A DNA stretch of 42,708 bases from a phage. Below the pieces are notes generated by a model. That model was not told the DNA's origin and did no database searches. It was given only the letters and a program-made list of their open reading frames with translations. Positions 1-33,360 of the stretch are shown in pieces. Position numbers and translations under genes: made by a program. Position 1 is the stretch's first letter. Every line of letters begins with the position of its first letter. The stretch lies in the sequence record QB031384.1; one strand, 5' to 3'.

Positions 1-2
1 TA

Positions 3-3000
3 TTACCCCTTATTATGTGCCAGCGATTTTACCTGCTCCTTTAGACGGGCAAGTTCTCTACGCTGGTACAGCATCTCAATGAAGAACATCTGATCAGGTC
101 GAATACCCCAACGACTACCTGCAGGAGTAACTACACTTACATTACCTTCCTCGTCATATTCCACCATCTCAGGGTACTCATCGTAGCACAGGAACCCGTA
201 CTTACATGAAGTAGCTTCAGGCTCCATAAGTCCGTTCGTAACGAGCACGTCACGTACCTGCTGTGCTATTACACCGAAGTGAGTACGAGCAGCATCCCCT
301 TTAGTAGCTAGACTGTCAAGCCACTTAAAGCTAATGATATGTACATCCTCCCAAGCATCTAACAGTGCCGATTCCACTTCCTCTGGAGCTGTTTTAAGAG
401 TACCGTCAGAAGTATTGATAGTGCCTGTAGCAGCGTACACCGTACTCCACCTATTAGATGCGCCTCCTAATGCTACAGAGGAGTCGTTATAAGGTAGCAG
501 GTTGTTTTGAGTGTAGACACCTCCCGTTGCGTACAGGACTGCCCTATTAGGCGTACTGTGATTAGATCCATAGAGTTGCACAATAGCGCCAGAGGCAGCG
601 GAGTTACCTGACCCTCCGCCCAGAATAAGCCGTTGCTGTGCTGGGTTATCAGTAGGCACTGACTTGTAAATCTGACCGTAATCCCCGTCCAGAAGTACTT
701 CAGACCGTACAGCAGGGATTCCGTTATGCCCAGTACCTGTAACACGCAAGGAGTTAACCTGTACGCTCTCATCAAAGACCATAGGCGCTGAAACATGACG
801 TAACCCATCTACCCCCATAGACACAGGTACAGTACGGTTAGGTGCTGCCCCGTATTTAAAGTCGCGAGACACATGCTGCTGCGGACCTACCTTAATACGG
901 TAGCTGTACAGGTCAGTAGGATGACCATCCTGCACGTACCAGCGCTTAGCAGAGTTACCTCCAATGGACCACGGGGATAAGAAATCCTCTCCGCCGAACA
1001 GATAGTACAGCCACCCATCCTTAACGCATACAGAACCTACCCCTACTGAGGAGTTAACTATGTTACCCTGATAAATCTGGTCGGTAACATTAAACCACTG
1101 CACCTCATCTAATGAGCTAGGCCAGTTACGGACGTTAACCTTGCACATAAAGGTGCGTGCGTAATTACCGTTGTAACGGTTATCAGGGGTATCCGCTTCC
1201 CACTCGTTTGCAGCCCGCTCACTCGAGAAGATATACAACTCGTCCCCCACCTTAGCAAAAGGTAGGTTACTGTTATGTACCTTGTTAGGGAAACGTAAGT
1301 ACTCCCAAGTCAAGCCTGAGTTAGTACTACGTGCCAAGGTAGAACCTGCGGAGGTGGCGGATGTTCCCCGAGTAGTAAGATACAACTCCCCGTCGTAATA
1401 GCGTATGCAAGGTTCGGAGGCATCGTTCGCGTACTCCTGAGACACTGTACGACGTTCAAATACTCCGGGATTGTTGTACACATCAGGGAAGTACAGGATA
1501 CCTAAACGTCTAGGAGAGACGTCACCGTTATGATAACCTACTGCAACTGCGTTACCTTCAAGGGCGGTAAAGCTATGGGTTTCAGTTACAGCTAAGTCAG
1601 CGTTAGTAGAGTATGCGATTCCCGGCAGTAAGGTCACTTCCCACTGGCAGTCCCAGAAACGTGTACCAAAGCTCCAAGTAACCCCGGCGTTGGTCAACGT
1701 TGAGGCAGCTGCGTTAGTTAAAGGTACTGTAATAGTATTAGCGTCAACTACGGTACGTACTACAGTATTACCTGAAACACCCGTAACCCCAGAGTTCGAG
1801 AAGTTAATAGTATCTCCTACCTTAAGCCCATGCATAGGAAGTACTACAGTAGCGAAGTTATCCCCAGCCACTGTGCTGATACCCCCAGTAGGCCTACGAG
1901 CATACGGCATTGGGCGCGACCACATCTCCGCCCGTACCATCCTAGCGTCAGATAGATTACGGGTCTCTACTAGCATGTACAAGCGGTTATTAGAAACACC
2001 CATGCTCATACAATGGTAGTTAACACCTGAGGCATAGTTAGGGTGGATAGGAGTAAGCCATTCTGGCATCGTCCACGTCTGACCATCGTCACCTGAACGT
2101 ACCCATGCTACATGCAGGTTCTGTACGCCATGCCGTTCACCTGCCATGAATGGTACGTATATTACATTATCATATACGAAAGACTTATCCTGAGTCCACG
2201 CATTGTAGAACGGGGTGTCTGTAATCTTAGTAAGACCTGCTTCGAAATAACCCTCCGATACATAAGTAAGAGGCTGACCCGCTAAGCGCTCATACTTAAA
2301 CGCGGCATTGCGGAAGCGGCTGAGGTCAGGTAAGGTAGTTACTTTAAAAGTTAAACCTTTACCGTCTATGTACTGATTATGGACCGCCGCTGCCAGCATG
2401 GCTTGAAGTGCTGCCGTATCATCCGTAACTGCATCACCTGCTACTCCCCATCCACGTACGTCAAAGGAATCTCTCCAATGAGGGCGGTAATACTCAGGAT
2501 TAACCTCAGGCCCGTCTATGCGAGTTAAGGCGTTACTCAGTGCAGCTAAACTCTCAGTAGTAGCATAACCTCCTTCCAGAACATCCTCACCTAGTCGCAT
2601 GAATACGTGAGTACCTGCGGGAACAGGGTCGGCTAGTATTACTGTATTGTCCCTAATGGTGTAACTGTACCCCGGAGTTTGACACACCCCGTTAATGTAC
2701 ACTGCTGCCTTTGTGAAGTTAAGGGCAATTCGGAACTCTTTAGTAGGTTCAGTAGTGTTGAAGTACATAGGGTAGCTGGAGGTAACACCGTTAAATGCAC
2801 CTTCGATGTTATCTACCCTGGTACTCACCTCATCCAGCTGTGACTTATTAACTGCATCCGTAGCGTCCTTACCTGCTGCCAGATTAATGATGCGGAAGCC
2901 GTTCATGTTGATAGTACCAAAGAAACCTTCGATACTGCGACCTTCTACCAGTTCCTGAGCTAAGTGCAGGAACTGGGTATTCTGAGTGTCTAAGTTCTCC

Positions 3001-3251
3001 TTAATAAAGGCAGCGCCTTCTGAGAACATGATGTAAAGAAACTCTTTAGCAGTGCGACGTACAATCAGTACAGTGCTCTCTGCATCGAGAGGCTTGTCAA
3101 AGCGGATGCGCGTATCACTGTCCCAAGTAAAATCAAATACCTCTTCACGGTTCACGTACAAGTAAATGTAGGAACGGTCGAGATAGTTGATCTCTACTGG
3201 GACAGTCTGTGCACCAGCTGGTAGAATTTGTTCTTGCCAGCTATAGGCCAT
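3..3251 (-). CDS. Tail fiber / tailspike: N-terminal T7 gp17-like adaptor, central Asp-box (BNR) beta-propeller glycosidase-like region, C-terminal intramolecular chaperone (peptidase S74-like)
   Basis: 1082-aa ORF. N-terminal region carries the tail-fiber motif FRIINLAAGKDATDAVNKSQLD. Central region has Asp-box-like motifs SGDDGQTWTM and STNSGLTWEY. C-terminus has TSDGTLK ... HFGVIAQQVRDVL, typical of autocleaving chaperone domains. Last gene of the structural module. Confidence 0.8.
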   Translation of the reverse strand: MAYSWQEQILPAGAQTVPVEINYLDRSYIYLYVNREEVFDFTWDSDTRIRFDKPLDAESTVLIVRRTAKEFLYIMFSEGAAFIKENLDTQNTQFLHLAQELVEGRSIEGFFGTINMNGFRIINLAAGKDATDAVNKSQLDEVSTRVDNIEGAFNGVTSSYPMYFNTTEPTKEFRIALNFTKAAVYINGVCQTPGYSYTIRDNTVILADPVPAGTHVFMRLGEDVLEGGYATTESLAALSNALTRIDGPEVNPEYYRPHWRDSFDVRGWGVAGDAVTDDTAALQAMLAAAVHNQYIDGKGLTFKVTTLPDLSRFRNAAFKYERLAGQPLTYVSEGYFEAGLTKITDTPFYNAWTQDKSFVYDNVIYVPFMAGERHGVQNLHVAWVRSGDDGQTWTMPEWLTPIHPNYASGVNYHCMSMGVSNNRLYMLVETRNLSDARMVRAEMWSRPMPYARRPTGGISTVAGDNFATVVLPMHGLKVGDTINFSNSGVTGVSGNTVVRTVVDANTITVPLTNAAASTLTNAGVTWSFGTRFWDCQWEVTLLPGIAYSTNADLAVTETHSFTALEGNAVAVGYHNGDVSPRRLGILYFPDVYNNPGVFERRTVSQEYANDASEPCIRYYDGELYLTTRGTSATSAGSTLARSTNSGLTWEYLRFPNKVHNSNLPFAKVGDELYIFSSERAANEWEADTPDNRYNGNYARTFMCKVNVRNWPSSLDEVQWFNVTDQIYQGNIVNSSVGVGSVCVKDGWLYYLFGGEDFLSPWSIGGNSAKRWYVQDGHPTDLYSYRIKVGPQQHVSRDFKYGAAPNRTVPVSMGVDGLRHVSAPMVFDESVQVNSLRVTGTGHNGIPAVRSEVLLDGDYGQIYKSVPTDNPAQQRLILGGGSGNSAASGAIVQLYGSNHSTPNRAVLYATGGVYTQNNLLPYNDSSVALGGASNRWSTVYAATGTINTSDGTLKTAPEEVESALLDAWEDVHIISFKWLDSLATKGDAARTHFGVIAQQVRDVLVTNGLMEPEATSCKYGFLCYDEYPEMVEYDEEGNVSVVTPAGSRWGIRPDQMFFIEMLYQRRELARLKEQVKSLAHNKG

Positions 3252-3253
3252 GT

Positions 3254-6200
3254 TTAATCTCCAAAGTTATTAATGATTGCACGGGTAGGCATGAACTCCT
3301 GCAAGAGCGGGAGACTACGGGACACGTCTTTAAGGTCTGCTTCTCCTGCTGCTACCTTCTGAATCAGTCCTAAGATGTTCATAGCATATCCAGTAGCGGT
3401 CAGGCTATGACGTGGGGACTGGTCGCTGAAGATATCAGTCACAAAGCTGAAGCCGCCTAGTATACTCATAGCTTTAACAGCTTCTGCGATAATCTTACCT
3501 TCTGATTCCTGCTTACCGTCAGCAGCGAAACGAGCTTGAGTAATAAGGTACATCAAAGGGAACTGATACGCAGCGAGATGGGCTAAGCCAATCCAGCCGT
3601 TATCACGGTATTCACGACGTAGAATCTTGTTAGTACCTGCTACAGCAAAGCTACCGTAACCAACTACTACGCGACCTACTGGACTGAACTGTGCAAAGTG
3701 AGAAGTCTCACCTACACGAATCTGCTGGATAACATGGTCCATTAGACGAGTACCAATAATCTCTAGCTGAAACTGTAAGTCATCTGGCAGTAAAGCATCA
3801 ACATCAGGACTAGCAGCAGCTTGCATACGCTTAGCAAGTTCAGGGTCAAGACCCCAACGCTGTAAACGCTTAGTAGCTTCTGCATCTCCGTTCAGCATGA
3901 GCTTAAGCTCATCCATTACGATACCTGCGTTAACGTTAGTCTGAAGACGATGCACCAGACCCATACCGTTTACGTGACGTGCAGCCTGACCGATGTTCTG
4001 AGTGATGTTAAACCAGCGGGAACTACGGGTAAGGTCTAAGTTATCATCAGCGTAAGAGTTCAACCAACGGAACCGAAGTTCCTTCTGAATGCTACCACGC
4101 AGGATAGAATCAAGACGAGCGGATTGACTAGCGTCTTTAGCGACAGCTGTAGCTTCCTTCCACCACTTTTCTTTCTTCATGCTGCGGAGTACTCGGGTCA
4201 TCCCGAACTCTTTCATAGCAAGCGCAGTATCTGCCAGCTGATACAAACCGGAGTTCTTAAGTACGGTGGCGTTGGCAAGGTTACCAGCAGCGCGGAATAT
4301 CTCCGGAACTTCTGAACCCTGAACAGGTGCGCCTACCATGAAGTCGATAGTATCATCTACATGCTTCTGATAACGGTCTGGGTCGCGTACTGTAGACTTA
4401 GCTGTGTTAATCATACCTTCCAGTGCATTCAAGTCAGTTACACCCGCGTATGCAAATGCTACACGACCTGATACACGGTTAGTATAACCTTGCATCTGCT
4501 TAGCTACGTCAGTATCCAGAATATCCGCCATACGCATAGCCTGGCCATTAACTATATACTCCTTCTGCAAGTCAAAGCGGTTACGAGTACGCAGGTTCTT
4601 AACCCGAGAAGTCTGAGTCGCTTCGCGTGCTACGTTAGTAGTAAGGAAGTTACGAATCTGGTCGTCTGCTACGCCTGCTGCACGCATTGCATCAACGATA
4701 ACTTCGTTGCCTACACCGCCCAGAATACTACGCCATGCCGGACCAGTCTGCTTAGACTTACCATCATAGATGCTTTCGAACATCTCACGAGCTACGCGAC
4801 CAGCAACCTCAGTTGTCATATCTGGGTAGATATCACGCAGGGCTTGACGGAACAGGTCGCGGTAGTCAGAAGCCTGACGCGCGCCAGTGTTAATCTGCTG
4901 ACGAATAGCATCGTAACTGTACGAGCGTGGGAAGTAGTAAGGACTACGCTTAATCTGAGAATCCACCTCAACCAGTCCAGACTTCTGGAGATGGTCATAC
5001 CATTTAGTAGCCCACTCAGAGTCTACATACGCCTTAACTAACGGGGCAATATCCTGAGGAGGGGTAGGAATCTCACGACCTGCTGTCTCCGCTGAGTATG
5101 CTTGGTCAAGGTATTGTGCAAGTTTAGACTCACGCTCACGACGAGCAGCTTTGAACTTGTTACGTTGCAAGAACGCATCCAGTAAACCAATACCATCTGC
5201 ACGCAGGGAATCAATAATGGCCTTCTCAACTACAGAGGCTGCACCATCAAGCTCTAACTGTAGGTTACGCTTATAGTCAGCTACAGAAGGACGACGTGCA
5301 CCTACTGCTGCGCCGTCAGCTACTAGCAGGTCTGCTAGGTCTTTAGAGCCTTCAGCAATGTTATCGTACAGGCTGAAGCTGCGAGCGAACGCCTTCTTAA
5401 AGCTATCTAACTGCTTAACTGCACCGTTAGCCGTATCGGCGAACTCACCATACTCAGATAATGCCTGAGACTTATAACGGGTAACACCACGCTCTTTAGC
5501 AGCTACATCCAGAAGCGCATCATAGGAATCAAGCACAGAGTTCAAGGCATTACCTTCTACCTTAGCACCTAATGCTTTAAGGATAGTTTGAGCAATACGA
5601 CGAATAGCACTAGCACCTTCTACTTCAGTATTACGCAGTAGCTTAACCAGACCTTTATCATCTGCAAGACCTGCAAGTAACTCTTCGTTACTGCTCAGGC
5701 TGTAGCGCATACGCGCATCAAGATTAGGACTAGTAAGAAGCTGCTCACGAATACGAGTAAGGTTAGTGGTAGCTTCCAATGCTTCTGGAGTACCAGACTG
5801 AATAGCGCGTACAGTAGCAGCATGTATAAGCTCATGCACAGCAATTTTAGCAGTATTAGAATCCAGGCCATTGATAGCATCTCCGTAGGTCTTCCAAGTA
5901 CGTGGGCCTTTCTTAGAGGCACGCAGGGTGACCGCATTGTTAACTAGGTTATAACGGCTAGAGATGTTAGTGTCACCTACGAGGTGTACAGGCACATCAT
6001 CTATGATACCGTCCAGTGAACGCAGCAATGCCTTCTGACCCTCATCCAGTACATCGCGTGCTAACAGGTTCTTAGTAACGTCACTTGCGCGTACACTTAC
6101 ACGAGCCTGCTGACCTTTCAGGATACGAATAGGTTTCTTAAGCGGGGTAGATTCTAAGGAATCAATCTTAGTAGTAAAGGCATCCGAGTCTGGAGCTGTA

Positions 6201-7024
6201 CGCTTAGTAGGAGCAGCTTCATCGAACTGCATTTCTGTACGAGTACTGCCACGAGTAGTACCAGTACTTGCATCTACAGCGTTACTAGCTGTGGTATCTG
6301 CTGCATCTTCCGTTGCACCTGCAACAGTACGCTGAACAGCACGGCTTGCATTAACTGCTTTGCGGATATCGAATAACTGGTCTACGCCTGATACTGCAGC
6401 TACTAATGCAGTGATACCTTCGGACTGTCCCAGCTGGTCCTGCGCATAGTACGCTGAACCTACGTCTGCTGCACGGATAGCTGAACGAACTGCTAAGCCT
6501 GCGCGACCTGCTACACCTGCGGCTGCAAACGGAGCTAACAGGGTAGGGGCGTCACCTAGAATAGAACCAGCGATACCAGACACGATGTTAGCGCTAGCAG
6601 TAGTATCACGCTCGCGCTGCTCCAGCATCTGTTCAATGCGGTAGTTATAATCATCCAAACTAACCGAAGTGCGTAAGTAATCAATTTCTTCCTGATTAGG
6701 GGTGTAAATTCTAGTCCGTGCATCTTTCTGGAGCATCTCCGTAGAGTTGAAGTCCAGGTCAGTTGGGAAGTCTGGAGAGAAAGCTTTGCGTAGACCTGCT
6801 GCGATAATACTGTTACCTGCACCAGCTATAAAGGACTGACCTGCAGTGATAGCAGCAGTACGAGCCTGGGCAGTATTAGATGCACGCTCAAGAGCGGAAG
6901 CACCTAAGTCTGTTGCATCACCCCAATTAACTGTAGCCTGAGGTTGTTGCACTTCAATGAGAGTATCTTGTTTAGCAGAATCCTTTATACCGGGACTAGC
7001 ATCTTGATTCAGGAACTGAGCCAT
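3254..7024 (-). CDS. Internal virion protein D-like (large ejection/core protein, T7 gp16 analogue)
   Basis: 1256-aa ORF between the gp15-like gene and the tail fiber. Size and position match T7/phiKMV synteny. No catalytic motif recognised by eye. Confidence 0.6.
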   Translation of the reverse strand: MAQFLNQDASPGIKDSAKQDTLIEVQQPQATVNWGDATDLGASALERASNTAQARTAAITAGQSFIAGAGNSIIAAGLRKAFSPDFPTDLDFNSTEMLQKDARTRIYTPNQEEIDYLRTSVSLDDYNYRIEQMLEQRERDTTASANIVSGIAGSILGDAPTLLAPFAAAGVAGRAGLAVRSAIRAADVGSAYYAQDQLGQSEGITALVAAVSGVDQLFDIRKAVNASRAVQRTVAGATEDAADTTASNAVDASTGTTRGSTRTEMQFDEAAPTKRTAPDSDAFTTKIDSLESTPLKKPIRILKGQQARVSVRASDVTKNLLARDVLDEGQKALLRSLDGIIDDVPVHLVGDTNISSRYNLVNNAVTLRASKKGPRTWKTYGDAINGLDSNTAKIAVHELIHAATVRAIQSGTPEALEATTNLTRIREQLLTSPNLDARMRYSLSSNEELLAGLADDKGLVKLLRNTEVEGASAIRRIAQTILKALGAKVEGNALNSVLDSYDALLDVAAKERGVTRYKSQALSEYGEFADTANGAVKQLDSFKKAFARSFSLYDNIAEGSKDLADLLVADGAAVGARRPSVADYKRNLQLELDGAASVVEKAIIDSLRADGIGLLDAFLQRNKFKAARRERESKLAQYLDQAYSAETAGREIPTPPQDIAPLVKAYVDSEWATKWYDHLQKSGLVEVDSQIKRSPYYFPRSYSYDAIRQQINTGARQASDYRDLFRQALRDIYPDMTTEVAGRVAREMFESIYDGKSKQTGPAWRSILGGVGNEVIVDAMRAAGVADDQIRNFLTTNVAREATQTSRVKNLRTRNRFDLQKEYIVNGQAMRMADILDTDVAKQMQGYTNRVSGRVAFAYAGVTDLNALEGMINTAKSTVRDPDRYQKHVDDTIDFMVGAPVQGSEVPEIFRAAGNLANATVLKNSGLYQLADTALAMKEFGMTRVLRSMKKEKWWKEATAVAKDASQSARLDSILRGSIQKELRFRWLNSYADDNLDLTRSSRWFNITQNIGQAARHVNGMGLVHRLQTNVNAGIVMDELKLMLNGDAEATKRLQRWGLDPELAKRMQAAASPDVDALLPDDLQFQLEIIGTRLMDHVIQQIRVGETSHFAQFSPVGRVVVGYGSFAVAGTNKILRREYRDNGWIGLAHLAAYQFPLMYLITQARFAADGKQESEGKIIAEAVKAMSILGGFSFVTDIFSDQSPRHSLTATGYAMNILGLIQKVAAGEADLKDVSRSLPLLQEFMPTRAIINNFGD

Positions 7025-7105
7025 TTATAAATCCTTAAAGGGTTGTGATAAAGAAGATAATAGAGCAGGGATACTGGAGGTGTATCCCGGCGCTGGAAGG
7101 GTTTT

Positions 7106-7134
7106 ATTATATCATGGATTTCATGATTCGTCAA
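7106..7134 (-). promoter_or_regulatory. Sigma70-like promoter (TTGACG - 17 bp - TGaTATAAT, extended -10) upstream of the gp16-like gene; copy A of an inverted duplicated element
   Basis: Minus-strand reading gives TTGACG (7129-7134), a 17-nt spacer, then TGATATAAT with -10 at 7106-7111. It sits in the 130-bp gap between gp15-like and gp16-like genes. About 40 bp is near-identical to 26624-26680 on the opposite strand. Confidence 0.4.
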
Positions 7135-7154
7135 ACCCTTTCTAAATATTTACA

Positions 7155-9851
7155 TTACTGACCAAGACGGACAGCTTGAACCGCTTGCCAATACTGAATC
7201 TCCAGGTACTGTTTACGCTTAGGTTGGGCTTGCTTATAAGCAGGCTGTTTCTTAAGTGTATCCAGCCCTACTAAAGACTGCGCTTGGAACGGGTCCTGCT
7301 GGTAGCCGTATGTCGCAGAGGAGCCTTGACCTTGTACTGATTTCAAGGTACGAAGAGCATCTGCTACAGGGGCGGAACTGCCGTTACCACCGTGATAGTT
7401 CAAGTCTACCAGAAGCTTCAGCCCAGAAGGGTCCTGAGTAATACCTTGCAGCTGTTTCTTAACCGCAGGGATGTACTGCTTCTCGAGAGAACCTTTCAAT
7501 ACCTCAATACCTTGTTCAGGAGTCAGGGATTCAGGAACTGGTAAGCCAGAGTTATCATGCAGACCAAAGCCTACGCTACCTTTCTTCTTAGTAGCACGGA
7601 AGCCTTCGAACTGAGCAGTAGTAGCTACGATGTCTGAGAAGAGGGCAGGTTGAATCCCAACACTGTTCTTGCCATTAACGTTCAGACTAATAGTACGTCC
7701 ATTATCAGCATCCCAGAATGTAGCAGGGCGAGAACCTACAGCCTTCTGACCAATCTCAATACCACCAGCTAGTGCTTCATCGTACCCAGCCTGAGCTAGC
7801 TGCTGAACCTGCTGCACGTCGATACTTACGTTCTGGTAGATACCGTCAGTAGTAAGGACAGAAGCAGTTAAGTTTTGACCCTGCGCACCAGCAGTACCTG
7901 CCTGCACGATTACACGGGAAACTTTAGAAGGGTCAGCTATGGCATCAACACTAGTTTGAATCTGCTGAGCAAGTGCAGTACGGAACTGTTCGGCATCCCC
8001 ACGATAAGAACCTTGAAGGTCTGCGAGTGTAGTACCAGCGGGAAGATAAACGTGACGCGGCTTACCTGATACTTCAACCTGCAACTGACGGGACTGGATA
8101 CGTCCCTTAAGAAGCGTGTTGATATCCTCCGGGGACTTACCTACCAGAAGTTCAGGGTTGCTACGGTACAACTGTTTATACTCTTCCTGTAATGCTACAC
8201 GTCCCTCCTGACGCTGCTGGTCCGCAGTATCACCAAAGCTAAACCAGTTAGCAGTAGACTCAGCATCAATAGCTGCTTCCGGAGGATTAGCTGGGAGGTT
8301 ATCATAGCGTCCGCTTGCACGGTTACGGGCTAAACGACGGATATCATCCAGAATGATATTACTAGCGTTAGACTGGCCCTGAGCAGCAGCACGTTGAATA
8401 ATACCACGGTACTCTTCAGGTACGTCACCGCTCAGTGCAATCTTATCTAAGTCACCGCCAGAGATGTACTGCTGTACCCAACCTGCGATAGCTGCGTTGT
8501 TCTCTGCACTAACTGTACCGTCCTCTGCGAGAGAGTCCAGCGAGGCTAAGGTGTTAGCCATTAAGCGTGAAGTACGCTGGTTAGCCTTCTGGATAAGTCC
8601 TGCATCTTTAGAGGTCTTACCGTACTGTAGAAGCGTAGCATTACCTACCGGAGTATCCGGGAACTGGTCCAAGATGAATTTCTGCGCTTTCTCTACATCC
8701 CCCTCGAACTGACCGGCAAGTACAGACGTAGGCTGACGATTATTAATCGCTATCTGCAACGCATACTTATCAGCTGCATCATCACGAAGCTTAGTAGCAC
8801 TGTTCCAGATATCAAGCTGAGTACCTGTGCTTAATACACCACTGCGCCCATACTGCTGTACTTGGGAGCGGATATTCTGTAAAGCTACTTCCTGCTGTTC
8901 CGGGGATGCACTACGGAGAGCTTCAAGCTGGTCAGCAATATCAAAGCGGACCTGTGCTTCCATCCGGGAGCCTGCACGCTTAAACTCAGTACGCAGTGCC
9001 TTAACGACATCTACAGAGTTAACACCGAGCTGCTCAGTTGCAATACGTTGAATACGGTCAATGACCAGAGGGTCAGTGGCATTCTGTGCAATAGATACAA
9101 GATAGTCCTGTACACGTGCAAACTTACTACTTTTATCGAGGTGCCCCGCACCTAGAATGGCACTCATACCAGATACTACAGCAGCGTCACCGGCAGGGAT
9201 ATTCCCGCTTTGGATATGGTTAAAGAACTCCTGACCGGAGGCACTTAAGTTCTGGTCTAATGCAGCATCTGCTCGCTGATTAGCAACTTTAGCGCGTCCC
9301 TCTTGGAAGGCGGCATAGTTAGCTGCGCTAGCTTGCTGCACCTGTGTAAGAGTAGCCGCAGCAGCCTGGCGGTCCAGCTGAGGTAGCCACTTGGATACTT
9401 GCTCAGAGAACTTAGCATTACCCTGTTGCTCTTGTAAACGAAACTCCTCATCAGACAAGCCTTGCGCTGCTGCGGAGTTAGCACGCTGAAGAGCGCCTAT
9501 ACGCCAGTCAGCAAGCTCACGACTTACTGCTGCGGAGGTGTAGCCTTGTGTATAAGAATCACGAAGGAATATGTTCTGCTGCTTAACCTTCTCATCTCTA
9601 GTAGCTTCTAAGTCGACAGCACCTTGAGCATCAAGCGCACCCTGTACAGCTGCCTTAGCGCCGTATACCTGGGCACGCTCAGAGAATCCTTCTACTGTTC
9701 CTTGAAGGAACTGACCAATAGCCTGACGCCTAGCTAATGCTGAGTCATCTACTGCTACTGCACCTACCGCCCCCTGTACTGCCTCAGTAGCCTGAAGCTG
9801 AACACCTTGAAGCTGCAAGCCTTGACGTTGTACACTTTGAGTAATAGGCAC
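7155..9851 (-). CDS. Internal virion protein C-like (T7 gp15 analogue)
   Basis: 898-aa ORF, Ala/Gln-rich and predicted helical, placed between gp14-like and gp16-like genes. Call is by synteny. Confidence 0.6.
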   Translation of the reverse strand: MPITQSVQRQGLQLQGVQLQATEAVQGAVGAVAVDDSALARRQAIGQFLQGTVEGFSERAQVYGAKAAVQGALDAQGAVDLEATRDEKVKQQNIFLRDSYTQGYTSAAVSRELADWRIGALQRANSAAAQGLSDEEFRLQEQQGNAKFSEQVSKWLPQLDRQAAAATLTQVQQASAANYAAFQEGRAKVANQRADAALDQNLSASGQEFFNHIQSGNIPAGDAAVVSGMSAILGAGHLDKSSKFARVQDYLVSIAQNATDPLVIDRIQRIATEQLGVNSVDVVKALRTEFKRAGSRMEAQVRFDIADQLEALRSASPEQQEVALQNIRSQVQQYGRSGVLSTGTQLDIWNSATKLRDDAADKYALQIAINNRQPTSVLAGQFEGDVEKAQKFILDQFPDTPVGNATLLQYGKTSKDAGLIQKANQRTSRLMANTLASLDSLAEDGTVSAENNAAIAGWVQQYISGGDLDKIALSGDVPEEYRGIIQRAAAQGQSNASNIILDDIRRLARNRASGRYDNLPANPPEAAIDAESTANWFSFGDTADQQRQEGRVALQEEYKQLYRSNPELLVGKSPEDINTLLKGRIQSRQLQVEVSGKPRHVYLPAGTTLADLQGSYRGDAEQFRTALAQQIQTSVDAIADPSKVSRVIVQAGTAGAQGQNLTASVLTTDGIYQNVSIDVQQVQQLAQAGYDEALAGGIEIGQKAVGSRPATFWDADNGRTISLNVNGKNSVGIQPALFSDIVATTAQFEGFRATKKKGSVGFGLHDNSGLPVPESLTPEQGIEVLKGSLEKQYIPAVKKQLQGITQDPSGLKLLVDLNYHGGNGSSAPVADALRTLKSVQGQGSSATYGYQQDPFQAQSLVGLDTLKKQPAYKQAQPKRKQYLEIQYWQAVQAVRLGQ

Positions 9852-9852
9852 T

Positions 9853-10404
9853 TTAGCCTCCTAAATAATTCTTCCACGCAGTTATAGTTGAACCTACTCG
9901 GCTTCCCCAGCTGTCGTAATCGAAGTCACCTAATACGCCATCAGCTGCTGCGGAGCCTGTAGAGGAGCCTACAGAGCCTAAGGCTGCGTTAAATATAATA
10001 TCCTGGCCTGACTGCTGAGAAGTATTGGCACGGGCATTATCAACCGCAGCTGTTGCTTGTTGGAAGAAACCTTCCTCACGAGCTGCTTGGTTTGCACGTA
10101 CACTTGCTTCAGCACGGCTGTTTACTACGTTGACTGTTGCGACTGCATCACGTACGGATGCACCTATAGTATCCGATGCCGCAGCTTGAAGGCCTACCTG
10201 CGATAAGGCTTGTTGCTTCTGCTGCCGCACGTTAAATAAGGCAGAGTTAGTAGCAGTACGGGACTGACTTCTCTGGAGGTTAATCTGACTAATGCCTTTA
10301 GCAAGCTGTGCCTGCGTAGCTTTAGATTGAGCTACATTAGCTTTAATCTGAGAGCCCGCCCCGAACAGCGATAGAGCGGCTTGAGCTGCTGCGAACTGCC
10401 ACAT
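9853..10404 (-). CDS. Internal virion protein B-like (T7 gp14 analogue)
   Basis: 183-aa ORF directly after tail tubular protein B. Call is by synteny and size. Confidence 0.5.
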   Translation of the reverse strand: MWQFAAAQAALSLFGAGSQIKANVAQSKATQAQLAKGISQINLQRSQSRTATNSALFNVRQQKQQALSQVGLQAAASDTIGASVRDAVATVNVVNSRAEASVRANQAAREEGFFQQATAAVDNARANTSQQSGQDIIFNAALGSVGSSTGSAAADGVLGDFDYDSWGSRVGSTITAWKNYLGG

Positions 10405-10417
10405 GGGCGGTCTCCTT

Positions 10418-12796
10418 TTAAATGCGTCTACGACGCTGATTGTAACGGAGGATATACGAGATATCCAGTATATTCATTTCCAACGTATCGTCAGTCATGA
10501 AAGTTACTTCTGTTGTACCTGAGTTAGTGCGGCAAGGTATAATTACGTTGCCAAGCTCATACCGAGGGGTAAGGCTCGGGGCTAAATCCTGAGAGTTCAG
10601 AATCAGTCCTGAGTAATCCCCTTCATTATTAACCCCGCGTGCCGTATCAAGTACCTGAACATTGAAGACACCAGACTTACGCGCAGCTACATCTAAACGC
10701 AGAAGACGTACATGTCCTGAGCCAACCAAGTTGTCGTTCTGGTCCTTAATCATTGGAGGGGTAATAGTGAATGAACTCGGAATACGGAAGCCACAATAAT
10801 ACAGGCCATCACGAACCCCGCGTACTACTGTACCTACGTCCCCGTCGTACGAGCGTACACCTACCGAGTCAGTTGCGATAGTAGAGGCCTCAGTAAAAGC
10901 TAATGCTAGCTTAGTACTGTAATCCCCACCCCGTAAGTGCTCTGGTACTGTGAACTTCCCGCCAGATACCTGCACAGCTATACGCGCATCCATATAAGGT
11001 ACGTCATACAACCCATCAGCTACGAAGCCCTCACGAGGGTCAATAGTCTGGACCTGTACTTGCCCTGAGCTAGGGTTACGTGTAAACAGGTACATTACCT
11101 CAGATTGACTATGTACGCTCAAGACTTCCTGCTGGAATGTCCACTGGTGCCAAGCAGCCTGTGACTTGCCTTCGTTATCCCATAAGTACTCATGCACAAG
11201 CAGCGCGTTACGATTACCGCTGTACTGGATAAATCCAATGTTAGTTACCGAGCTTAGTACCATCTTCATTATACGACCGGGTATATATCTAGGCAGGTGC
11301 GCTGTGGCATCTGTAGATGTATACTGCGATGACGTATAAGGACTTGGCACAAACTCAAGCACCCCTGCATAAGCAGAGTTGCGTCGGTTAGGGTAGAGGA
11401 TAGTCTGCCCTGCTACAATTGGCACAATCCGGCTATCACATGAGAATTCTGAGGTTAAGCTTACGCTAGCATTACTGGGAGTAAGGGCACCACTACCTGG
11501 AACTACTGCTTGCATACTATCACCGAAGACTACTAAGTCACGGTTGAACTGCAACGCTGTACGGAATACAGAATCCTGTGCAGATGCAGAAGCAATATCT
11601 ATACGGTCAGTATCGAGCAACGAGGTTACTGTACTGCGGTAGAACCTAGTGTACAAGCCGGACGCTGATAAGCTAATACCTGCACCTGATAGCAGTACAA
11701 GCCTGCCTTGGAATGCAGCAATACCAGTAAGGTACCCGTTATCTACAAAGTAAGGATTAGCGTTAGTATCATCGTCACCTGACAGACGTCCCTCGAAATC
11801 ACGTACAATGATGTTATCATCTGCTGCTAGTTCAAGCGGCATGTTAGAGATGCGGGAAATGCTATTATAACCGCCTACCTCTGTCCAAGCACGGGTGCTG
11901 TAATTGAACTGGTACCATGTACTATCTGAACCTGCGCGACCAACTGCGCATAGCGCCCCGTTAGCAGATGCAGGTAAGGATGCAGGAAGGTCAGATTCCT
12001 GACTTACTCGGGACTGGTTGGAAACAGATGCATATGTAGAGCCTGACGAAGTAGTTACTACACATCCCGGGAGGTTGTTGATAAAGATAGTCGTACCTGC
12101 GGCATCTATCTCTACAGTGCCACCAGCCGCTTCTACCCTACTACGAATACCTGCCACGGTCTGACCATCTACAGAAGATGCAGAACCATTTACCAGCAAC
12201 CCAATGATGCGACCAGAGGTAGCTTTGCTTGGGTCATCATTATTACCGGGTAAGGTGTACGAGGTAGATATAACCCCGCCGTTGTGAGTTACGGTAATAT
12301 TCCATTCCTTACCTGCAAGCACTGTCGTAATGAGACGGAAGAAACCACTGTTATTCGGATTCAGCTTACCTGTATTGTCACGGGTAATAACAGGCCGTTG
12401 CTCAGTATTCAGGATGTATGTCAATCCGCCTACGCTAGCTGTCTGGATAGATGTAGCGCCTATACTAGCCAGAAGGTATGCGTGATTGCCTGAGTTAACT
12501 ACCTGACCTGTATTCTTACCTAAAAGGTACCAATCGCCTGTAGCTGTATTAATTACGAGGTGACGCCCGTCAGTACCGCGCTCTACATAAGAGGTAAAGA
12601 GCTGACCTGATAAAGGTGCAGTGATACCTGTACTGTTATTAAGAAGAACAGCACCCGGGCGGCGTCGGATACTAGTTACAGGGTCAGAGAGCATGTTCAC
12701 CTGAGACCCTAATTGTCCCGGCTTACGCTCACGGGGAATCTGTTGCGATACTCCCTGCAATAAGCTAGGGATAGTTCCTTCCAAGGAATTAGCCAT
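10418..12796 (-). CDS. Tail tubular protein B (T7 gp12-like)
   Basis: 792-aa ORF (T7 gp12 is about 794 aa), immediately downstream of the tail tubular A-like gene with stop/start overlap. Confidence 0.7.
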   Translation of the reverse strand: MANSLEGTIPSLLQGVSQQIPRERKPGQLGSQVNMLSDPVTSIRRRPGAVLLNNSTGITAPLSGQLFTSYVERGTDGRHLVINTATGDWYLLGKNTGQVVNSGNHAYLLASIGATSIQTASVGGLTYILNTEQRPVITRDNTGKLNPNNSGFFRLITTVLAGKEWNITVTHNGGVISTSYTLPGNNDDPSKATSGRIIGLLVNGSASSVDGQTVAGIRSRVEAAGGTVEIDAAGTTIFINNLPGCVVTTSSGSTYASVSNQSRVSQESDLPASLPASANGALCAVGRAGSDSTWYQFNYSTRAWTEVGGYNSISRISNMPLELAADDNIIVRDFEGRLSGDDDTNANPYFVDNGYLTGIAAFQGRLVLLSGAGISLSASGLYTRFYRSTVTSLLDTDRIDIASASAQDSVFRTALQFNRDLVVFGDSMQAVVPGSGALTPSNASVSLTSEFSCDSRIVPIVAGQTILYPNRRNSAYAGVLEFVPSPYTSSQYTSTDATAHLPRYIPGRIMKMVLSSVTNIGFIQYSGNRNALLVHEYLWDNEGKSQAAWHQWTFQQEVLSVHSQSEVMYLFTRNPSSGQVQVQTIDPREGFVADGLYDVPYMDARIAVQVSGGKFTVPEHLRGGDYSTKLALAFTEASTIATDSVGVRSYDGDVGTVVRGVRDGLYYCGFRIPSSFTITPPMIKDQNDNLVGSGHVRLLRLDVAARKSGVFNVQVLDTARGVNNEGDYSGLILNSQDLAPSLTPRYELGNVIIPCRTNSGTTEVTFMTDDTLEMNILDISYILRYNQRRRRI

Positions 12797-13350
12797 TACA
12801 GTCTAAACCCTCTACGAATATTATGAGCGTTACGAGCACGCGTAGTACTGTAACGTTGATTACGAAGATGCTCACGCAATGTAAGAGCTTCGTACTGTCG
12901 TGCCTGAGCTTCCAGCACCTGGTAGTTAGCATCAGTACCTAAGTCGTTAGCATAGACCTGAGCAGCTGCTTCGTACGCAATCCATAAGGCTACGTGCTCC
13001 GGTAAGTCTTCGAAGTCGAAGTCCAGAATAACACGCAGAGTTACAGGATTCTCAAAGCGCTGAGTCTGCTCTACAAGGTCATATAAGTTACCATTGCGCT
13101 CACTGTACTTCTTACCATCCAAGCCATAGATAGCGACTTGCTTCCACGGAATAGTAATACGCTGTACAGTGCTCGGAGTAACTTCACGGGTAATAGTATT
13201 AAACCAGTAACCAGTACTAAGCGTCCCGCGACGGGTACGTTCAATAGCTGCTTTAGCTAGGCCCACTGAAGGGTTCTGGCTATTTAAATCAACAGCCCTA
13301 GATTCGCCCAGAGCTTCAAGTGTTACGTTTACAGCGTCGATGAGTCTCAA
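12796..13350 (-). CDS. Tail tubular protein A (T7 gp11-like)
   Basis: 184-aa ORF following the capsid terminator and preceding gp12-like gene. Call is by synteny and size. Confidence 0.65.
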   Translation of the reverse strand: MRLIDAVNVTLEALGESRAVDLNSQNPSVGLAKAAIERTRRGTLSTGYWFNTITREVTPSTVQRITIPWKQVAIYGLDGKKYSERNGNLYDLVEQTQRFENPVTLRVILDFDFEDLPEHVALWIAYEAAAQVYANDLGTDANYQVLEAQARQYEALTLREHLRNQRYSTTRARNAHNIRRGFRL

Positions 13351-13389
13351 CGTTTAGTCTCCTTTGTATTTTAAGCTCTGGGATAGAAC

Positions 13390-13420
13390 TTAAAAGACAA
13401 AGCCCCGCACAAGGCGGGGA
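13390..13420 (-). terminator. Rho-independent terminator downstream of the capsid gene (Tphi-like)
   Basis: On the minus strand: 6-bp GC stem (CCCCGC / GCGGGG, 13403-13408 paired with 13414-13419), 5-nt loop, then CUUUGUCUUUUAAGUU. Same position as the T7-group capsid terminator. Confidence 0.65.
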
Positions 13421-13424
13421 CAGT

Positions 13425-13619
13425 TTACTCAGCTTTCTTAGACTTAGTCTTTTTAACTTCTAAGTCTGTAGAGATGATTTCAATAACCGCTGGCAGAAGC
13501 TCAGCGGCTGTAATCTTATCATCAAAGTCATGGATACGACGCGCAACTTCTTTAAGGTTGCGCAGCACGATATCACGCGGGCCCTCAGGACCCGCAACTA
13601 CTTTAGCAATGATTGCCAT
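13425..13619 (-). CDS. Hypothetical small protein (64 aa) between capsid gene and terminator
   Basis: ORF starts 8 nt after the capsid stop, with an AAGGT SD overlapping the capsid stop codon, and ends just before the terminator hairpin. No recognisable motif. Confidence 0.4.
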   Translation of the reverse strand: MAIIAKVVAGPEGPRDIVLRNLKEVARRIHDFDDKITAAELLPAVIEIISTDLEVKKTKSKKAE

Positions 13620-13627
13620 TTTGTACC

Positions 13628-14620
13628 TTACGCAGTGGTGAAGCTAACGATAGCTGCGGTATCTGGACGACGGTTACCAACAGTATACATCGCATAGCAA
13701 TCCAGTACGTTAGCGAAGTTCAGTTCATCGTCCCAAATACGGGCGGTGAACGGTTGAGCTTCAACAGTTACCAGAGTCTTAGACTTGCTGAAGGTTACCA
13801 TACGGCACTTTGCATCAGCAGCAGTAACGGTATAAGCAGAACCCAGCGGATGCGGACCAGCGCCCGGGAACTCTACAGCCTCAACAACCGGGATACCGTT
13901 CATTACAACTACGCGACGCTGTTTGAAACCGTCATCGTTACTGTTACCAAAGTCACGGTCGAATAGTTTCGGGTGTTCCAGCAACTGAGAATAGATCTCA
14001 GTAGATACCAGAGTAACCATGTCAGACAGCGGAACCTTACGCTTAATCAGCTCGTCAACACCTTTACGGTGTGCTTCGTTGATTGCTACTGCGTTAGCTT
14101 CACGACCAGTTACGCCAACCGGGTTAGCAGTCAGCGAGGCAGCAATCTCAATACCATCAGAGAATGCAGGTTTCAGATGCTCAGGAGCAACCCAAGTACG
14201 GCCTTTAATCAGCTGAATCAAGTGTGCCTGGTCAAAGGTCTCTGCGAACTCATAACCGTTGTTCTGACCCATCTCGGTAAGGAAGTCTGGAGCAGTCCAA
14301 TCATCCTGATAGTCAATCGGGTTACGGATGTACAGCACGGTATCAACAACGATAATCATCTTATCGTTACGAACCGGAGTCGGAGCCAGAGCTTCACCAG
14401 ACTGACGGCCTTTAACTGAAGAAGTATTCAGGCGGTCAATACGATAAGTGTTAGACTGGTTCTGAGTAGAACGCTGAGAGGACAGGCCCAAGAACAGCGC
14501 TTGGTATTCGAAGCGAGAATCTACTTCTGATTGATACACTTCCAGATGGATGTCAGTATCAGACTGCGCGCCAGCCCAATGTGGCTTAGTTGAGTTACCA
14601 GTGTATGCAGTATTAGCCAT
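13628..14620 (-). CDS. Major capsid protein (T7 gp10-like)
   Basis: 330-aa ORF preceded by AGGAAA SD, located between the scaffold gene and the terminator. Call is by synteny and size. Confidence 0.8.
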   Translation of the reverse strand: MANTAYTGNSTKPHWAGAQSDTDIHLEVYQSEVDSRFEYQALFLGLSSQRSTQNQSNTYRIDRLNTSSVKGRQSGEALAPTPVRNDKMIIVVDTVLYIRNPIDYQDDWTAPDFLTEMGQNNGYEFAETFDQAHLIQLIKGRTWVAPEHLKPAFSDGIEIAASLTANPVGVTGREANAVAINEAHRKGVDELIKRKVPLSDMVTLVSTEIYSQLLEHPKLFDRDFGNSNDDGFKQRRVVVMNGIPVVEAVEFPGAGPHPLGSAYTVTAADAKCRMVTFSKSKTLVTVEAQPFTARIWDDELNFANVLDCYAMYTVGNRRPDTAAIVSFTTA

Positions 14621-14743
14621 GTTATGTATTTCCTATATATAGAGTGATTGAGAGTTTAAGTTTAGTTGCCGGAGGTGGGCAGGGAGTATTAAGCAGAAAG
14701 CCACACGGAGTGTACTGTGCTTCCACATCTCCAGCAGGTTTAA

Positions 14744-15568
14744 TTACAGCCCAGCACGCTTACCAGCAGCGCGACGGTCTAACAGGTCTTGGTAGCGACC
14801 AGCGAAAGCTTGAGACTGCAAGCTGCGGTTACCTACCTCTTTGCGAAGTTTAGAATATTCTTCGCTGAATGCCTTAGCACTAAGAGCACCAGCAGAGCCA
14901 GGTGCGCCTTGAAACTTAGGATTAATAGTCGCCATTACGCCGAGGCTTTGACAAGTCTCGATAACGAACTTAGCAGCCCCTGCGATATCGCCTGAATCGG
15001 CGAGTGCACGTGCAGCCTTACGGATGTGCTCGGGAGCCTTAGCATTAAATACCTGCGTCGCTGCATCCCATTGCTCTTTACCGCCAGCCATTTCATAAGC
15101 CGAATTAACTGCCTTCTGAACCCGACCTACTTGGTCTTCCAGATACGCCTTAGCTAGCATCTCTGCATATGCAGCATGTTCACCGAAACGTTCTTGGATG
15201 AATGCCTTATCAATTAAGTTAGCATCACCATACTCAATAGCCTTACCGATAGCACGGACCATGTCCGAGTCATTCAGTTTAGATACTTGTTTGAGCATAG
15301 CAATACCGGCATCAATTGCTGGATTACCTGTCTCTGCTAATTCAGTCTGAGCTGAAGCAGGAGTCGGAGCCTCTGATTTATTAAGTAGCTTAGACAGCGC
15401 TTCAATATCAAGCGTAGCAGGAGCAGGAGCTACTGCGACCTCAGGCACACCTTGCATGTTTGGTGCCTTAACGTTTGCGCCAGGGCCCGGAATCTTGGGG
15501 CCGTCGACATTCTCAACAACTATAGTTGCTGGAACTTCGCTTGGTACTGCTGAAATATCATCTGACAT
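14744..15568 (-). CDS. Scaffolding protein (T7 gp9-like)
   Basis: 274-aa Ala-rich, acidic, helical-looking ORF between portal and capsid genes. Confidence 0.65.
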   Translation of the reverse strand: MSDDISAVPSEVPATIVVENVDGPKIPGPGANVKAPNMQGVPEVAVAPAPATLDIEALSKLLNKSEAPTPASAQTELAETGNPAIDAGIAMLKQVSKLNDSDMVRAIGKAIEYGDANLIDKAFIQERFGEHAAYAEMLAKAYLEDQVGRVQKAVNSAYEMAGGKEQWDAATQVFNAKAPEHIRKAARALADSGDIAGAAKFVIETCQSLGVMATINPKFQGAPGSAGALSAKAFSEEYSKLRKEVGNRSLQSQAFAGRYQDLLDRRAAGKRAGL

Positions 15569-15577
15569 TTGTAACCC

Positions 15578-17134: not shown

Positions 17135-17137
17135 AGT

Positions 17138-17368
17138 TTAAATCCCAAGTGCAGACGATGCTGCGCCTTGACGACGTCGCTTCTGGTCTGAGGTAATTGC
17201 AGTTGCAGATGCAGAGGCTGCGCCGCCTGAATCTACCTGAGTCAGGTTCTCACCAGAAGCATCGTTATCTAATGCAGCCTGTGCCGCGATGGCTTGCCGC
17301 TGTTGTTCAGCTGCTTTCTGCTGCGCTTCCAGTGCCGCAGTGTCAGTCAGTCCAACAAGGTCAGTCAC
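17138..17368 (-). CDS. Hypothetical protein (76 aa, GTG start)
   Basis: ORF-track ORF beginning with GTG (plus CAC at 17366-17368) and ending 3 nt before the portal ATG. Ala/Gln-rich, weak SD. Confidence 0.35.
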   Translation of the reverse strand: MTDLVGLTDTAALEAQQKAAEQQRQAIAAQAALDNDASGENLTQVDSGGAASASATAITSDQKRRRQGAASSALGI

Positions 17369-17427
17369 AGATGATAATGCTTTCTTAATCCCGCCGATGA
17401 TGCTACCCTCCGCCCGAAGGCTATATG

Positions 17428-17856
17428 TTAGTTGAGTTTGATTCCGCGCTGAAGATAGTCCTTATCCGACACCGCACGGGTGAGTATTAACCAGTCTGCA
17501 CCGTTCTCTCGAACAATACGTTTTAAATTCCTGTAGAGTGTAGCAACTGCCTGGGGATGATAAGGCTCAACTACCAAGAAGCCCGTAACCATACTCTTCC
17601 CAGGGTAATGTGAATTCTCTAGTAATTCAGGCAGGATACTTACCCCACCTACCAACTCATCTCCACTGAACACAGCTAAGACACTGTGCCCTTGTATCTC
17701 CTGGACAACCTTCTGGAAGTGCTCTTCCTCGTCCATACCTAGCTTAATGCCAATGCCCCAGATATGAAGCTGTTTTACAATCTTGATTATGTAATCACTG
17801 GAAGTATTCCAATTGTATAATCTAGTGTTGTAGAGAGTGTTGTTTTGTTTGCTCAT
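17428..17856 (-). CDS. Hypothetical protein (142 aa)
   Basis: ORF between the HNH gene and the portal region. A weak resemblance to an acetyltransferase-type fold (GFLVVEPYH...) is unverified. Confidence 0.5.
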   Translation of the reverse strand: MSKQNNTLYNTRLYNWNTSSDYIIKIVKQLHIWGIGIKLGMDEEEHFQKVVQEIQGHSVLAVFSGDELVGGVSILPELLENSHYPGKSMVTGFLVVEPYHPQAVATLYRNLKRIVRENGADWLILTRAVSDKDYLQRGIKLN

Positions 17857-17924
17857 GTTGGTTGCTACCCCTTACTATTACCTGTGGTTCCTCCATCCCA
17901 GAAATCGAACTACTGGGAGGAGAT

Positions 17925-18572: not shown

Positions 18573-18581
18573 ATAACACCT

Positions 18582-26591: not shown

Positions 26592-26623
26592 AGTTAACCT
26601 ATATGTAAAGAATTATTTATTAC

Positions 26624-26652
26624 TGGACAAATCCTGATATTCATGATATAAT
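26624..26652 (+). promoter_or_regulatory. Sigma70-like promoter on the plus strand (TGGACA - 17 bp - TGaTATAAT), antisense to all neighbouring genes; copy B of the inverted duplicated element
   Basis: Plus strand has TGGACA (26624-26629), a 17-nt spacer, then TGATATAAT with -10 at 26647-26652. Sequence is near-identical to the minus-strand element at 7095-7134. Confidence 0.35.
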
Positions 26653-26678
26653 AAAACCCTTCCTACGCAGGGCTACAC

Positions 26679-27378: not shown

Positions 27379-27489
27379 ATTGAATCCTCTTAAGTCTGCA
27401 ACCTCACCGCGAAGTTGCTTAACTAAGAGACTTCCTTAGCGAGTCTTATTTCTCTTAGACTCTCATCTGCATCGCACTGTATTACCTGT

Positions 27490-33350: not shown

Positions 33351-33360
33351 ATTAGTAACC

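Follow-up and report, generated by a model that had tools for sequence, protein, structure and literature searches.

A candidate host-type extended -10 promoter between the gp15-like and gp16-like genes of a KP34/phiKMV-like phage, and its inverted copy

The phage sequence QB031384.1 (42,708 nt; "the window" below means this whole stretch) carries a gap of 130 bp (7025-7154) between the genes for its gp15-like and gp16-like internal virion proteins, as claimed in an earlier note on this DNA that was made from the sequence alone. All long open reading frames (ORFs) of the window are on the minus strand, so that the gap is read from 7154 to 7025. It contains a candidate promoter for the host RNA polymerase, here called site A, followed by a hairpin and by the translation leader of the gp16-like gene; an inverted copy of the promoter module, site B, is found some distance away in the same genome. 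Over this region, the sequence shares 99.8% identity with Escherichia phage vB_EcoP_P64441 and about 80% with vB_EcoP_PAS7 (P64441 and PAS7 in the following), both of which belong to the Slopekvirinae, KP34/phiKMV-like autographiviruses; PAS7 serves as type phage for a proposed genus, Cepavirus (PAS7 paper). In the prevailing view, phages of the phiKMV/KP34 type rely on host RNA polymerase for their early genes and on their own polymerase for their late genes. The features of the locus, in the direction of reading, are the following.

7155-9851, minus strand: gene for the gp15-like internal virion protein B, upstream of the junction
7135-7156, minus strand: AT-rich segment AATGTAAATATTTAGAAAGGGT 5' of the -35 hexamer, UP-element-like, the same in all copies of site A except for one base in PAS7
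7140-7133 and 7104-7097, minus strand: inverted repeat AAGGGTTT / AAACCCTT, bracketing the promoter and specific to site A
7134-7129, minus strand: -35 hexamer TTGACG, 5/6 of TTGACA, invariant in all copies of site A
7128-7112, minus strand: spacer of 17 nt, comprising the dyad ATCATGA-AAT-CCATGAT and the extended -10 TG
7114-7113, minus strand: extended -10 TG, one base 5' of the -10 hexamer (-15/-14), invariant in 11 copies
7111-7106, minus strand: -10 hexamer TATAAT, 6/6, invariant in 11 copies
7078-7105, minus strand: discriminator and initial transcribed sequence AAAACCCTTCCAGCGCCGGGATACACCT, common to site B (two copies in the window, 0 expected by chance)
7094-7062, minus strand: leader hairpin with core GGGAUAC (7088-7082), loop ACCUCCA (7081-7075) and GUAUCCC (7074-7068)
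7025-7067, minus strand: pyrimidine-rich linker and conserved translation leader TTATCACAA..CCCTTTAAGGA
3254-7024, minus strand: gene for the gp16-like internal virion protein, the first gene 3' of the promoter, annotated in P64441 as peptidoglycan lytic exotransglycosylase
3-3251, minus strand: gene for a tail fibre with endosialidase domains

At the sequence level, site A displays all the elements of an extended -10 sigma70 promoter, that is a -10 hexamer, a TG in front of it and a -35 hexamer at a spacing of 17 ± 1 nt. The description of a near-consensus sigma70 promoter (TTGACG with a 17-bp spacer) given in the earlier note is well founded: the hexamers match the consensus at 11 of 12 positions and are accompanied by the TG, which makes site A the sole site of this kind in positions 1-20000. 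The window as a whole has two sites with at least 11/12 matches plus TG, namely sites A and B, against a mean of 0.02 and a maximum of 1 in 200 dinucleotide-preserving shuffles. Judging from the distance to the -10 hexamer, transcription is predicted to start at about 7102-7099. A Shine-Dalgarno sequence, AAGGA (7036-7032), 7 nt 5' of the gp16 ATG, gives a well-formed predicted mRNA. According to the folding model, the inverted repeat at 7097-7140 would form only in RNA that reads through from gp15; a 156-nt read-through RNA of this type has a fold z-score of -2.66.

Other contents of the gap were considered. The only ORFs that overlap it encode 21-41 aa, and the conservation of site A described below thus has no explanation in terms of a reading frame; a hidden small gene was rejected, given that insertions and deletions in relatives break every reading frame. 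An origin of the promoter module in the host was also rejected, as a search of 5,426 E. coli genomes gave no match to it. Searched over the whole window, Rfam 15 yielded no covariance-model match at gathering score (the only permissive match was to a miRNA model, E = 0.88), and a tRNA scan found none.

The promoter module was aligned in 11 copies, taken from sites A and B of about seven related genomes. PAS7, ECO104 4-5-2, S.Kent 1-2-1 and the metagenomic sequences L030/L049 and L031/L047 all have site A at this junction. Between the gp15 stop codon and the 3' end of the hairpin (98 nt), identity to the window is 92-99%, compared with 66-80% in the coding flanks (blocks of 300 nt) and about 70% in the downstream leader, and megablast matches to more distant relatives cover the gap only, not the genes. 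The TATAAT hexamer, the TG at -15/-14 and the 17-nt length of the spacer never vary in the 11-copy alignment, whereas the letters of the spacer differ freely among copies of site B (AATCCTGATATTCATGA, AATCTCAGCATTCGTGC, GATTCAATTATTCGTGC and others). The -35 hexamer of the B copies is TTGACA, TGGACA or TGTACA, with 1-2 mismatches at most, and the copy in L036 is a perfect 12/12. Conserved in both A and B are, in addition, about 25 nt 3' of the -10 hexamer, AAA(A/G)CCCTTCC..CGC.GGG.TACAC, as well as ATGTAAA(T/G)A, the core of the AT-rich segment. A scan of metagenomes added only one new contig. Invariant promoter elements around a spacer that drifts at constant length are the pattern of conservation that would be left by selection on a sigma70 promoter.

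Seven GenBank records from wastewater in Turkey (OR844702, OR844859, OR850875, OR848779, OR847408, OR847472 and OR849530) are marked UNVERIFIED_ORG and labelled as Listeria, Salmonella or Escherichia phages. With site A or site B as BLAST query, all of them gave equal identity and score, and they probably represent one E. coli phage present across samples, not phages of different hosts. The ECO104 and S.Kent copies of site A are the same base for base.

From the evidence of its sequence, site A is probably a genuine host sigma70 extended -10 promoter that drives gp16 and the late genes downstream of it; its firing during infection, its start site and the purpose of its transcript are what we infer. 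In one E. coli clade of the Slopekvirinae, comprising the window phage/P64441, PAS7 and their relatives, a module of about 80-100 nt would have been inserted after the gp15-like stop codon, in front of an older element of the junction. E. coli RNA polymerase, starting at the predicted site, would produce a 5' leader of about 76 nt with the hairpin at approximately +12 to +40, and would then continue through gp16, the endosialidase tail fibre, and the terminase and lysis genes, independently of the phage polymerase. A terminator scan of the minus strand called no terminator-like site in positions 1-7000, downstream of site A. The hairpin may act on the RNA, by way of stability, processing or weak attenuation, and would be present in late read-through transcripts as well. 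Site B would give rise to a non-coding antisense RNA across the gene for a small acidic protein.

Several points weigh against this interpretation. In phage LUZ19, the relative that has been studied most, host-type promoters are found at the left end only and late genes depend on phage-polymerase promoters, so that a late host promoter is unexpected, and the PAS7 paper contains no discussion of promoters. Shut-off of host RNA polymerase by the phage might leave a late-entering host promoter little time to act; no host-polymerase inhibitor was recognisable among 10 neighbouring proteins. The near-identity of site A across divergent genomes could be due to recent recombinational spread instead of selection, and the approximately 25 conserved nt 3' of the -10 hexamer exceed what promoter function alone explains. 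Finally, none of the window's own phage-polymerase promoters was identified with the motifs of KP34, phiKDA1 and PAS7, a brute-force search for repeats being too noisy; site A might either supplement a phage promoter or replace one.

Recombination does appear to have affected the module. The hairpin allele of the window is that of L030 and L031, although PAS7 is closer to the window in the flanks, and this discordance suggests that the module has been exchanged between phages by recombination. Traits typical of A are also found in copies of B, i.e. in the spacer of the window's site B and in the downstream segment CCGGGATAC of the L012 copy, which hints at exchange between the two sites. Moreover, both sites look like insertion hot spots, with an HNH gene beside site B in the window and not in P64441, while the site A junction holds an HNH gene in L032 and 70-90 additional nt in L030; intergenic sites are general targets for insertion. 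These observations speak for a module without function for the phage, that is a passive or selfish repeat which resembles a promoter and is homogenised by recombination between phages and between sites. We nevertheless consider such a repeat very unlikely. Substitutions in the B copies are concentrated in the spacer, whose length is unchanged, and leave the TG and the -10 hexamer intact, unlike the outcome of drift or simple homogenisation. Inverted repeats are, moreover, costly for a linear genome that recombines, yet every complete genome of the clade has retained the two copies.

The module could also be a promoter of the phage's single-subunit RNA polymerase, with its sigma70 look being secondary. 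In LUZ19 and 15 related phages, the structural region contains one phage-polymerase promoter and the early region another, which is antisense; this is the layout of sites A and B. The polymerase of KP34 recognises two unrelated promoter classes. That motif searches failed to find the window's phage promoters is a further point in favour of this possibility. A search of the window with the strong KP34 phage-polymerase promoter, T(A/G)ATGTTACAGGAGTA, returned one match with 3 mismatches, located outside sites A and B, where 0.77 are expected by chance. A candidate phage promoter was found in phiKDA1 (ATAGAGGTTGCACG, at 408, 3518 and 20737 of L061), and a T7/SP6-like one in PAS7 (GTAT(G/C)ACTATAAGATA, at 11660 and 19226 of L062), each with one copy just after the gene for the phage RNA polymerase (RNAP). 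Neither is conserved in the window, and both are absent at A and B. A promoter near the 3' end of the RNAP gene has been mapped in KP34 and LUZ19, whereas the A/B module has only two copies in the window and no third one near the RNAP gene. In addition, the module bears no likeness to the KP34 motif, and its invariant positions coincide precisely with the sigma70 elements, at a spacing of precisely 17 nt. The structural-region promoter of KP34 was examined as a counterpart at the same junction; its spacing from the RNAP gene (about 11.5 kb) fits, but it is situated 745 nt inside the gp16-like gene and was rejected. On these grounds a promoter for the phage enzyme appears extremely improbable.

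In the window, a second HNH endonuclease gene (17925-18572, minus strand) directly follows the RNAP gene. The short gap that relatives have in this place probably holds a phage-polymerase promoter.

The second copy of the module, which is inverted relative to the first, comprises the following features.

26603-26680, plus strand: site B, inverted paralogue of the module, antisense to all genes
26624-26629, plus strand: -35 hexamer TGGACA
26644-26645, plus strand: TG
26647-26652, plus strand: -10 hexamer TATAAT

The arms 7078-7155 and 26603-26680 make up the longest inverted repeat in the window (78 nt, 77% complementary), and they have in common an exact 22-mer that occurs nowhere else in the window, with 0 expected by chance. 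Together with the 11-copy alignment, this bears out the proposal that sites A and B share sequence by copying. The further proposal, that the second copy is linked to an HNH gene, did not survive comparison. Site B fills the gap between the HNH gene, or the small acidic-protein gene, and a pentapeptide-repeat gene, and is at the same place in P64441, PAS7, ECO104, S.Kent, L012 and L013/L036, none of which has an adjoining HNH gene. The HNH gene of the window (26679-27182, minus strand), which P64441 lacks, has been inserted in frame into the gene for the 62-aa acidic protein, at its 3' end. The small protein of P64441 ends in ...APSEYEVVEK and the HNH protein of the window in ...HGEYEVVEK; the last eight codons (EYEVVEK) now terminate the HNH protein, and the small gene (69 aa, 27169-27378) has a new tail. 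Since the B copies of relatives lack an HNH gene and that of the window was inserted in frame, the HNH neighbour of site B is incidental and recent.

Every complete genome with site A also has site B, and the outgroups have neither, as seen in the whole genome of phiKDA1, the late region of Shigella phage Buco, the junction of KP34-like phages and the B-equivalent region of L038-L042. Presence and absence can for this reason not show which copy is ancestral. The comparison of the junction in related phages that had been suggested as a check thus located the element at the same junction, and site B without HNH genes in these phages, but it did not settle the direction of copying. The homology between A and B takes in the 5' arm and the loop of the A hairpin, which leans weakly towards site A as the source of the B copy; against this, the GGG also pairs locally at B. 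A role of site B as a terminator on the sense strand was considered and rejected: a hairpin AGCCCU..AGGG(U/C)U with a U-rich tail is called there by the terminator scan, but L012 has lost this hairpin and retained the promoter elements.

The two promoters are oriented outward, each facing a different genome end. This feature is in keeping with selection not for gp16 mRNA but for a short regulatory RNA of about 45-60 nt (conserved 5' sequence, hairpin and U-rich tail), or for transcription that acts at the DNA level in replication priming or genome entry. The 25 or so nt after the -10 hexamer, common to A and B despite unrelated downstream contexts, point the same way, and so does the lack of a conserved plus-strand ORF downstream of B, which implies that at least one copy has a non-coding product. 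Short leader RNAs arising from premature termination are, according to the literature, common in phage transcriptomes. Transcripts from site B show no significant fold, on the other hand (z from +0.28 to -0.93), no terminator follows the hairpin of A, there is no Rfam match, and the common downstream sequence may be due to recent copying and gene conversion, in view of the A-like spacer of the window's B and the A-like segment in L012. We regard both variants of this explanation as quite unlikely.

The hairpin in the predicted leader of site A is real and maintained among relatives. Its core, a 7-bp stem GGGAUAC...GUAUCCC, had been placed at about 7064-7084 and is in fact at 7068-7088, 4 nt away. 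RNA folding extends the stem to 11 pairs (7094-7062) with two 1x1 mismatches and a lower stem made of GC..GC and AG..CU, and an 81-nt junction RNA containing it folds with -16.6 kcal/mol. Among relatives, the loop has 7 or 8 nt and the leader 35-111 nt, with a linker of variable length. In the clade of the window all 11 pairs form in 5/5 distinct hairpin copies, against 36-60% when the partner is slid. One compensatory change in the stem, from A-U to G-C, is weak on its own, as 49 of 500 shuffles do as well; stronger evidence comes from the presence, in four genera, of complementary stems that occupy one position but have a different sequence in each genus. In KP34 and seven Drulisvirus contigs, the junction is TAA-CCA-GAGGCCC-UUCG-GGGCCUC-CCCUUAUCAAAAUUCUUUUAGGAG..AUG, a 50-bp gap with no sigma70 promoter. 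The junction of phiKDA1 and two related contigs reads GGGGCC-UC-GGCCCC or GGGGC-UUCG-GCCCC, then UGCUCUUAUCACAA..UUUUGAGG..AUG, and that of Buco GGGGCC-GUGU-GGCCCC-GCCUUUAUCAAAACCCUUUUAGAGAG..AUG. Folding predicts a junction hairpin in every lineage, and the segments TTATCA(A/C)AA and CTTT.AGG of the leader are conserved across the four genera.

The notion that internal virion genes are usually tightly packed at this point is thus only partly correct, the junction gaps of relatives measuring 50-100 bp and being occupied by the hairpin. Because KP34-like phages, phiKDA1 and Buco have the hairpin and leader without the promoter, these sequences show that the hairpin predates the promoter, and that the two are separable parts and not one device. 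The ancestral junction consisted of stop codon, hairpin, TTATCA(A/C)AA..CTTT.AGG leader and ATG, to which the clade of the window added the promoter module upstream and a longer linker. No earlier description of the hairpin and leader upstream of gp16 that are common to the four genera was found in the phage literature searched.

Three observations concern this junction in individual relatives. In Buco (6088-6146 of L063; MK562503, approximately 32087-32145), the annotation lets the gp16-like gene begin at an ATG that overlaps the preceding stop codon (TAATG), and the conserved hairpin, the leader and a start encoding MAEFLNKEADP are found about 55 nt 3' of this ATG; the annotated start is probably wrong. 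In L030 (approximately 3845-3920; same as L049, contig 3300010266_000002), the extra segment of 70-90 nt, located between the hairpin and the gp16 leader, contains an inverted repeat GTCAGG...CCTGAC; it may have arisen by insertion of a small element, or may form an additional RNA structure. The HNH endonuclease gene in the phiKDA1-like L032 (approximately 3740-4130, contig 3300045988_022161) directly follows the gp15-like stop codon, which marks the gp15-gp16 junction as a recurrent insertion site.

The sequence 3' of the stem, described in the earlier note as U-rich, is pyrimidine-rich (UGCUCUAUUAUCUUCUUUAUC). A U-tract is absent: the tail UGCUCUAU has 4 U in its first 8 bases, and the hairpin was not called by the terminator scan, the same scan that called the post-capsid terminator at 13419-13403. 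As there is no U-tract, the hairpin is not a canonical intrinsic terminator. It could be an element of RNA stability or processing, or a weak attenuator for either polymerase. A more specific role was put forward in the earlier note, namely that the hairpin is a partial terminator or attenuator of gp15 transcripts and that the promoter restarts transcription, thereby setting the ratio of gp15 to gp16 and tail fibre. Virions of T7 contain fewer copies of gp16 than of gp15, which would make attenuation at this place sensible. The maintenance of a junction hairpin with four stems in four genera does argue for a function at the level of RNA or transcription, and the flank is, after all, pyrimidine- and U-rich. 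The order of the elements does not suit this scheme: the hairpin is 3' of the promoter, so that termination would also strike the re-initiated transcripts. Furthermore, KP34, phiKDA1 and Buco have the older hairpin with no promoter to restart from. Termination followed by re-initiation is unlikely for these reasons, and the promoter and the hairpin are better seen as a host-type start site placed upstream of a pre-existing RNA element.

Host-type promoters of a different build are found in the early region. Three sigma70-type early promoters on the minus strand (27611-27638, 34501-34528 and 36053-36080) have the form AAAATA(A/G)(G/T)TG-TTGAC(A/T)-16 nt-TA.A.T. These promoters (at 36080, 34528 and 27638) have a good -35 hexamer; like their counterparts in PAS7, they lack the TG and combine a spacer of 16-17 nt with a -10 hexamer that is imperfect. 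The two classes are architecturally distinct in every genome, and the -35 hexamer of B decays whereas its TG-n-TATAAT does not. Phage P23-45 of Thermus has extended -10 middle and late promoters, and extended -10 promoters resist AsiA of T4 (PMC3950348). As promoters of this type resist phage factors that block the -35 region, the two classes in the window could be separated in time. It is tempting to speculate, by analogy, that the early promoters without TG are shut off by a phage factor that blocks -35 recognition, and that the extended -10 sites A and B escape. Site A would then provide late expression, by the host polymerase, of gp16, the tail fibre and the packaging and lysis genes; the antisense RNA from site B would silence the early acidic protein; and the conserved first 25 or so transcribed nt would be a common RNA signal or protein-binding signal. 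We regard this two-class programme as rather unlikely. The resemblance to P23-45 is in the phage-borne TG-n-TATAAT promoters for host polymerase, set apart from a -10/-35 class, the early promoters of the window being without TG; it ends with the failure to find a gp39- or AsiA-like factor among the neighbouring proteins and with the possession, by the window phage, of an RNA polymerase of its own.

Some 60-80 nt after each of the early promoters lies a conserved leader repeat of about 85 nt (27460-27544, 34376-34460 and 35917-36001), with 62-78% identity between copies. It has no match in Rfam.

Other known systems resemble the module in part. In T7, Dunn and Studier (in 1983) are said to have described minor E. 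coli promoters, B, C, E and the leftward A0, one of them in the late region. Such minor promoters are weak and active only at high polymerase concentration (PMC6228582). Like site A and its twin they are host-type promoters outside the early region of a phage of the T7 supergroup, with one of them directed leftward. They differ in being weak matches to the consensus with no known role, whereas site A is near-consensus, has an extended -10, is conserved above its flanks and has an inverted twin. In layout, sites A and B are similar to the structural-region and antisense promoters of phiKMV-like phages (P009 and P001 of LUZ19, and the KP34 promoter at nt 33721), but these are of the phage-polymerase type with unrelated motifs, that of KP34 being within the gp16-like gene, while site A is of sigma70 type and lies in the gap.

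The PeSL cassettes of T4-like phages (PMC2839356, PMC4122927) are also small repeats made of a sigma70-type promoter and a stem-loop. They are located at intergenic sites of gene insertion or exchange, as may hold for sites A and B too. PeSLs occur in many copies in hyperplastic regions; the module described here has two inverted copies per genome, and the stem-loop at A, older and local to that site, does not belong to the repeat. The junction hairpin itself is reminiscent of the intrinsic terminators and intercistronic stabilising hairpins of phage late operons, as a GC-containing stem-loop after a stop codon of which the structure is kept and not the sequence. It differs from intrinsic terminators in that it has no U-tract, is not called by the scan and is located, in the clade of the window, inside the leader of a promoter. 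Host promoters in phage genomes are thus already known; what appears to be particular to site A is its unusual placement, its striking conservation and the presence of an inverted twin.

If active, site A would let the host polymerase contribute to late expression, or to its regulation, in this E. coli clade. The site challenges, on sequence evidence, the expectation that late transcription in phiKMV-like phages is carried out by the phage enzyme only. Cloned fragments with site A should act as strong constitutive promoters in E. coli, and genes inserted at the junction would be transcribed by both polymerases. This is of relevance to phage engineering, as the clade includes K1-capsule and O103-specific therapeutic candidates. 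The tail fibre of the window (3-3251) has the full set of endosialidase domains on a T7-type N-terminal adaptor, and this domain set points to K1-capsule specificity.

Elsewhere in the window, the DNA polymerase is encoded by two overlapping ORFs (27651-28838 and 28795-29946, minus strand) and is annotated likewise in P64441 and PAS7; a split gene or programmed frameshift seems to be the reason, not a sequencing error. The early/middle region encodes two pentapeptide-repeat proteins (26019-26591 and 32814-33401, minus strand), and the 15-nt periodicity of both genes constitutes the largest family of direct repeats in the window. In the PAS7 record, a homologue of these pentapeptide-repeat proteins is labelled "modular polyketide synthase" and placed on the wrong strand.

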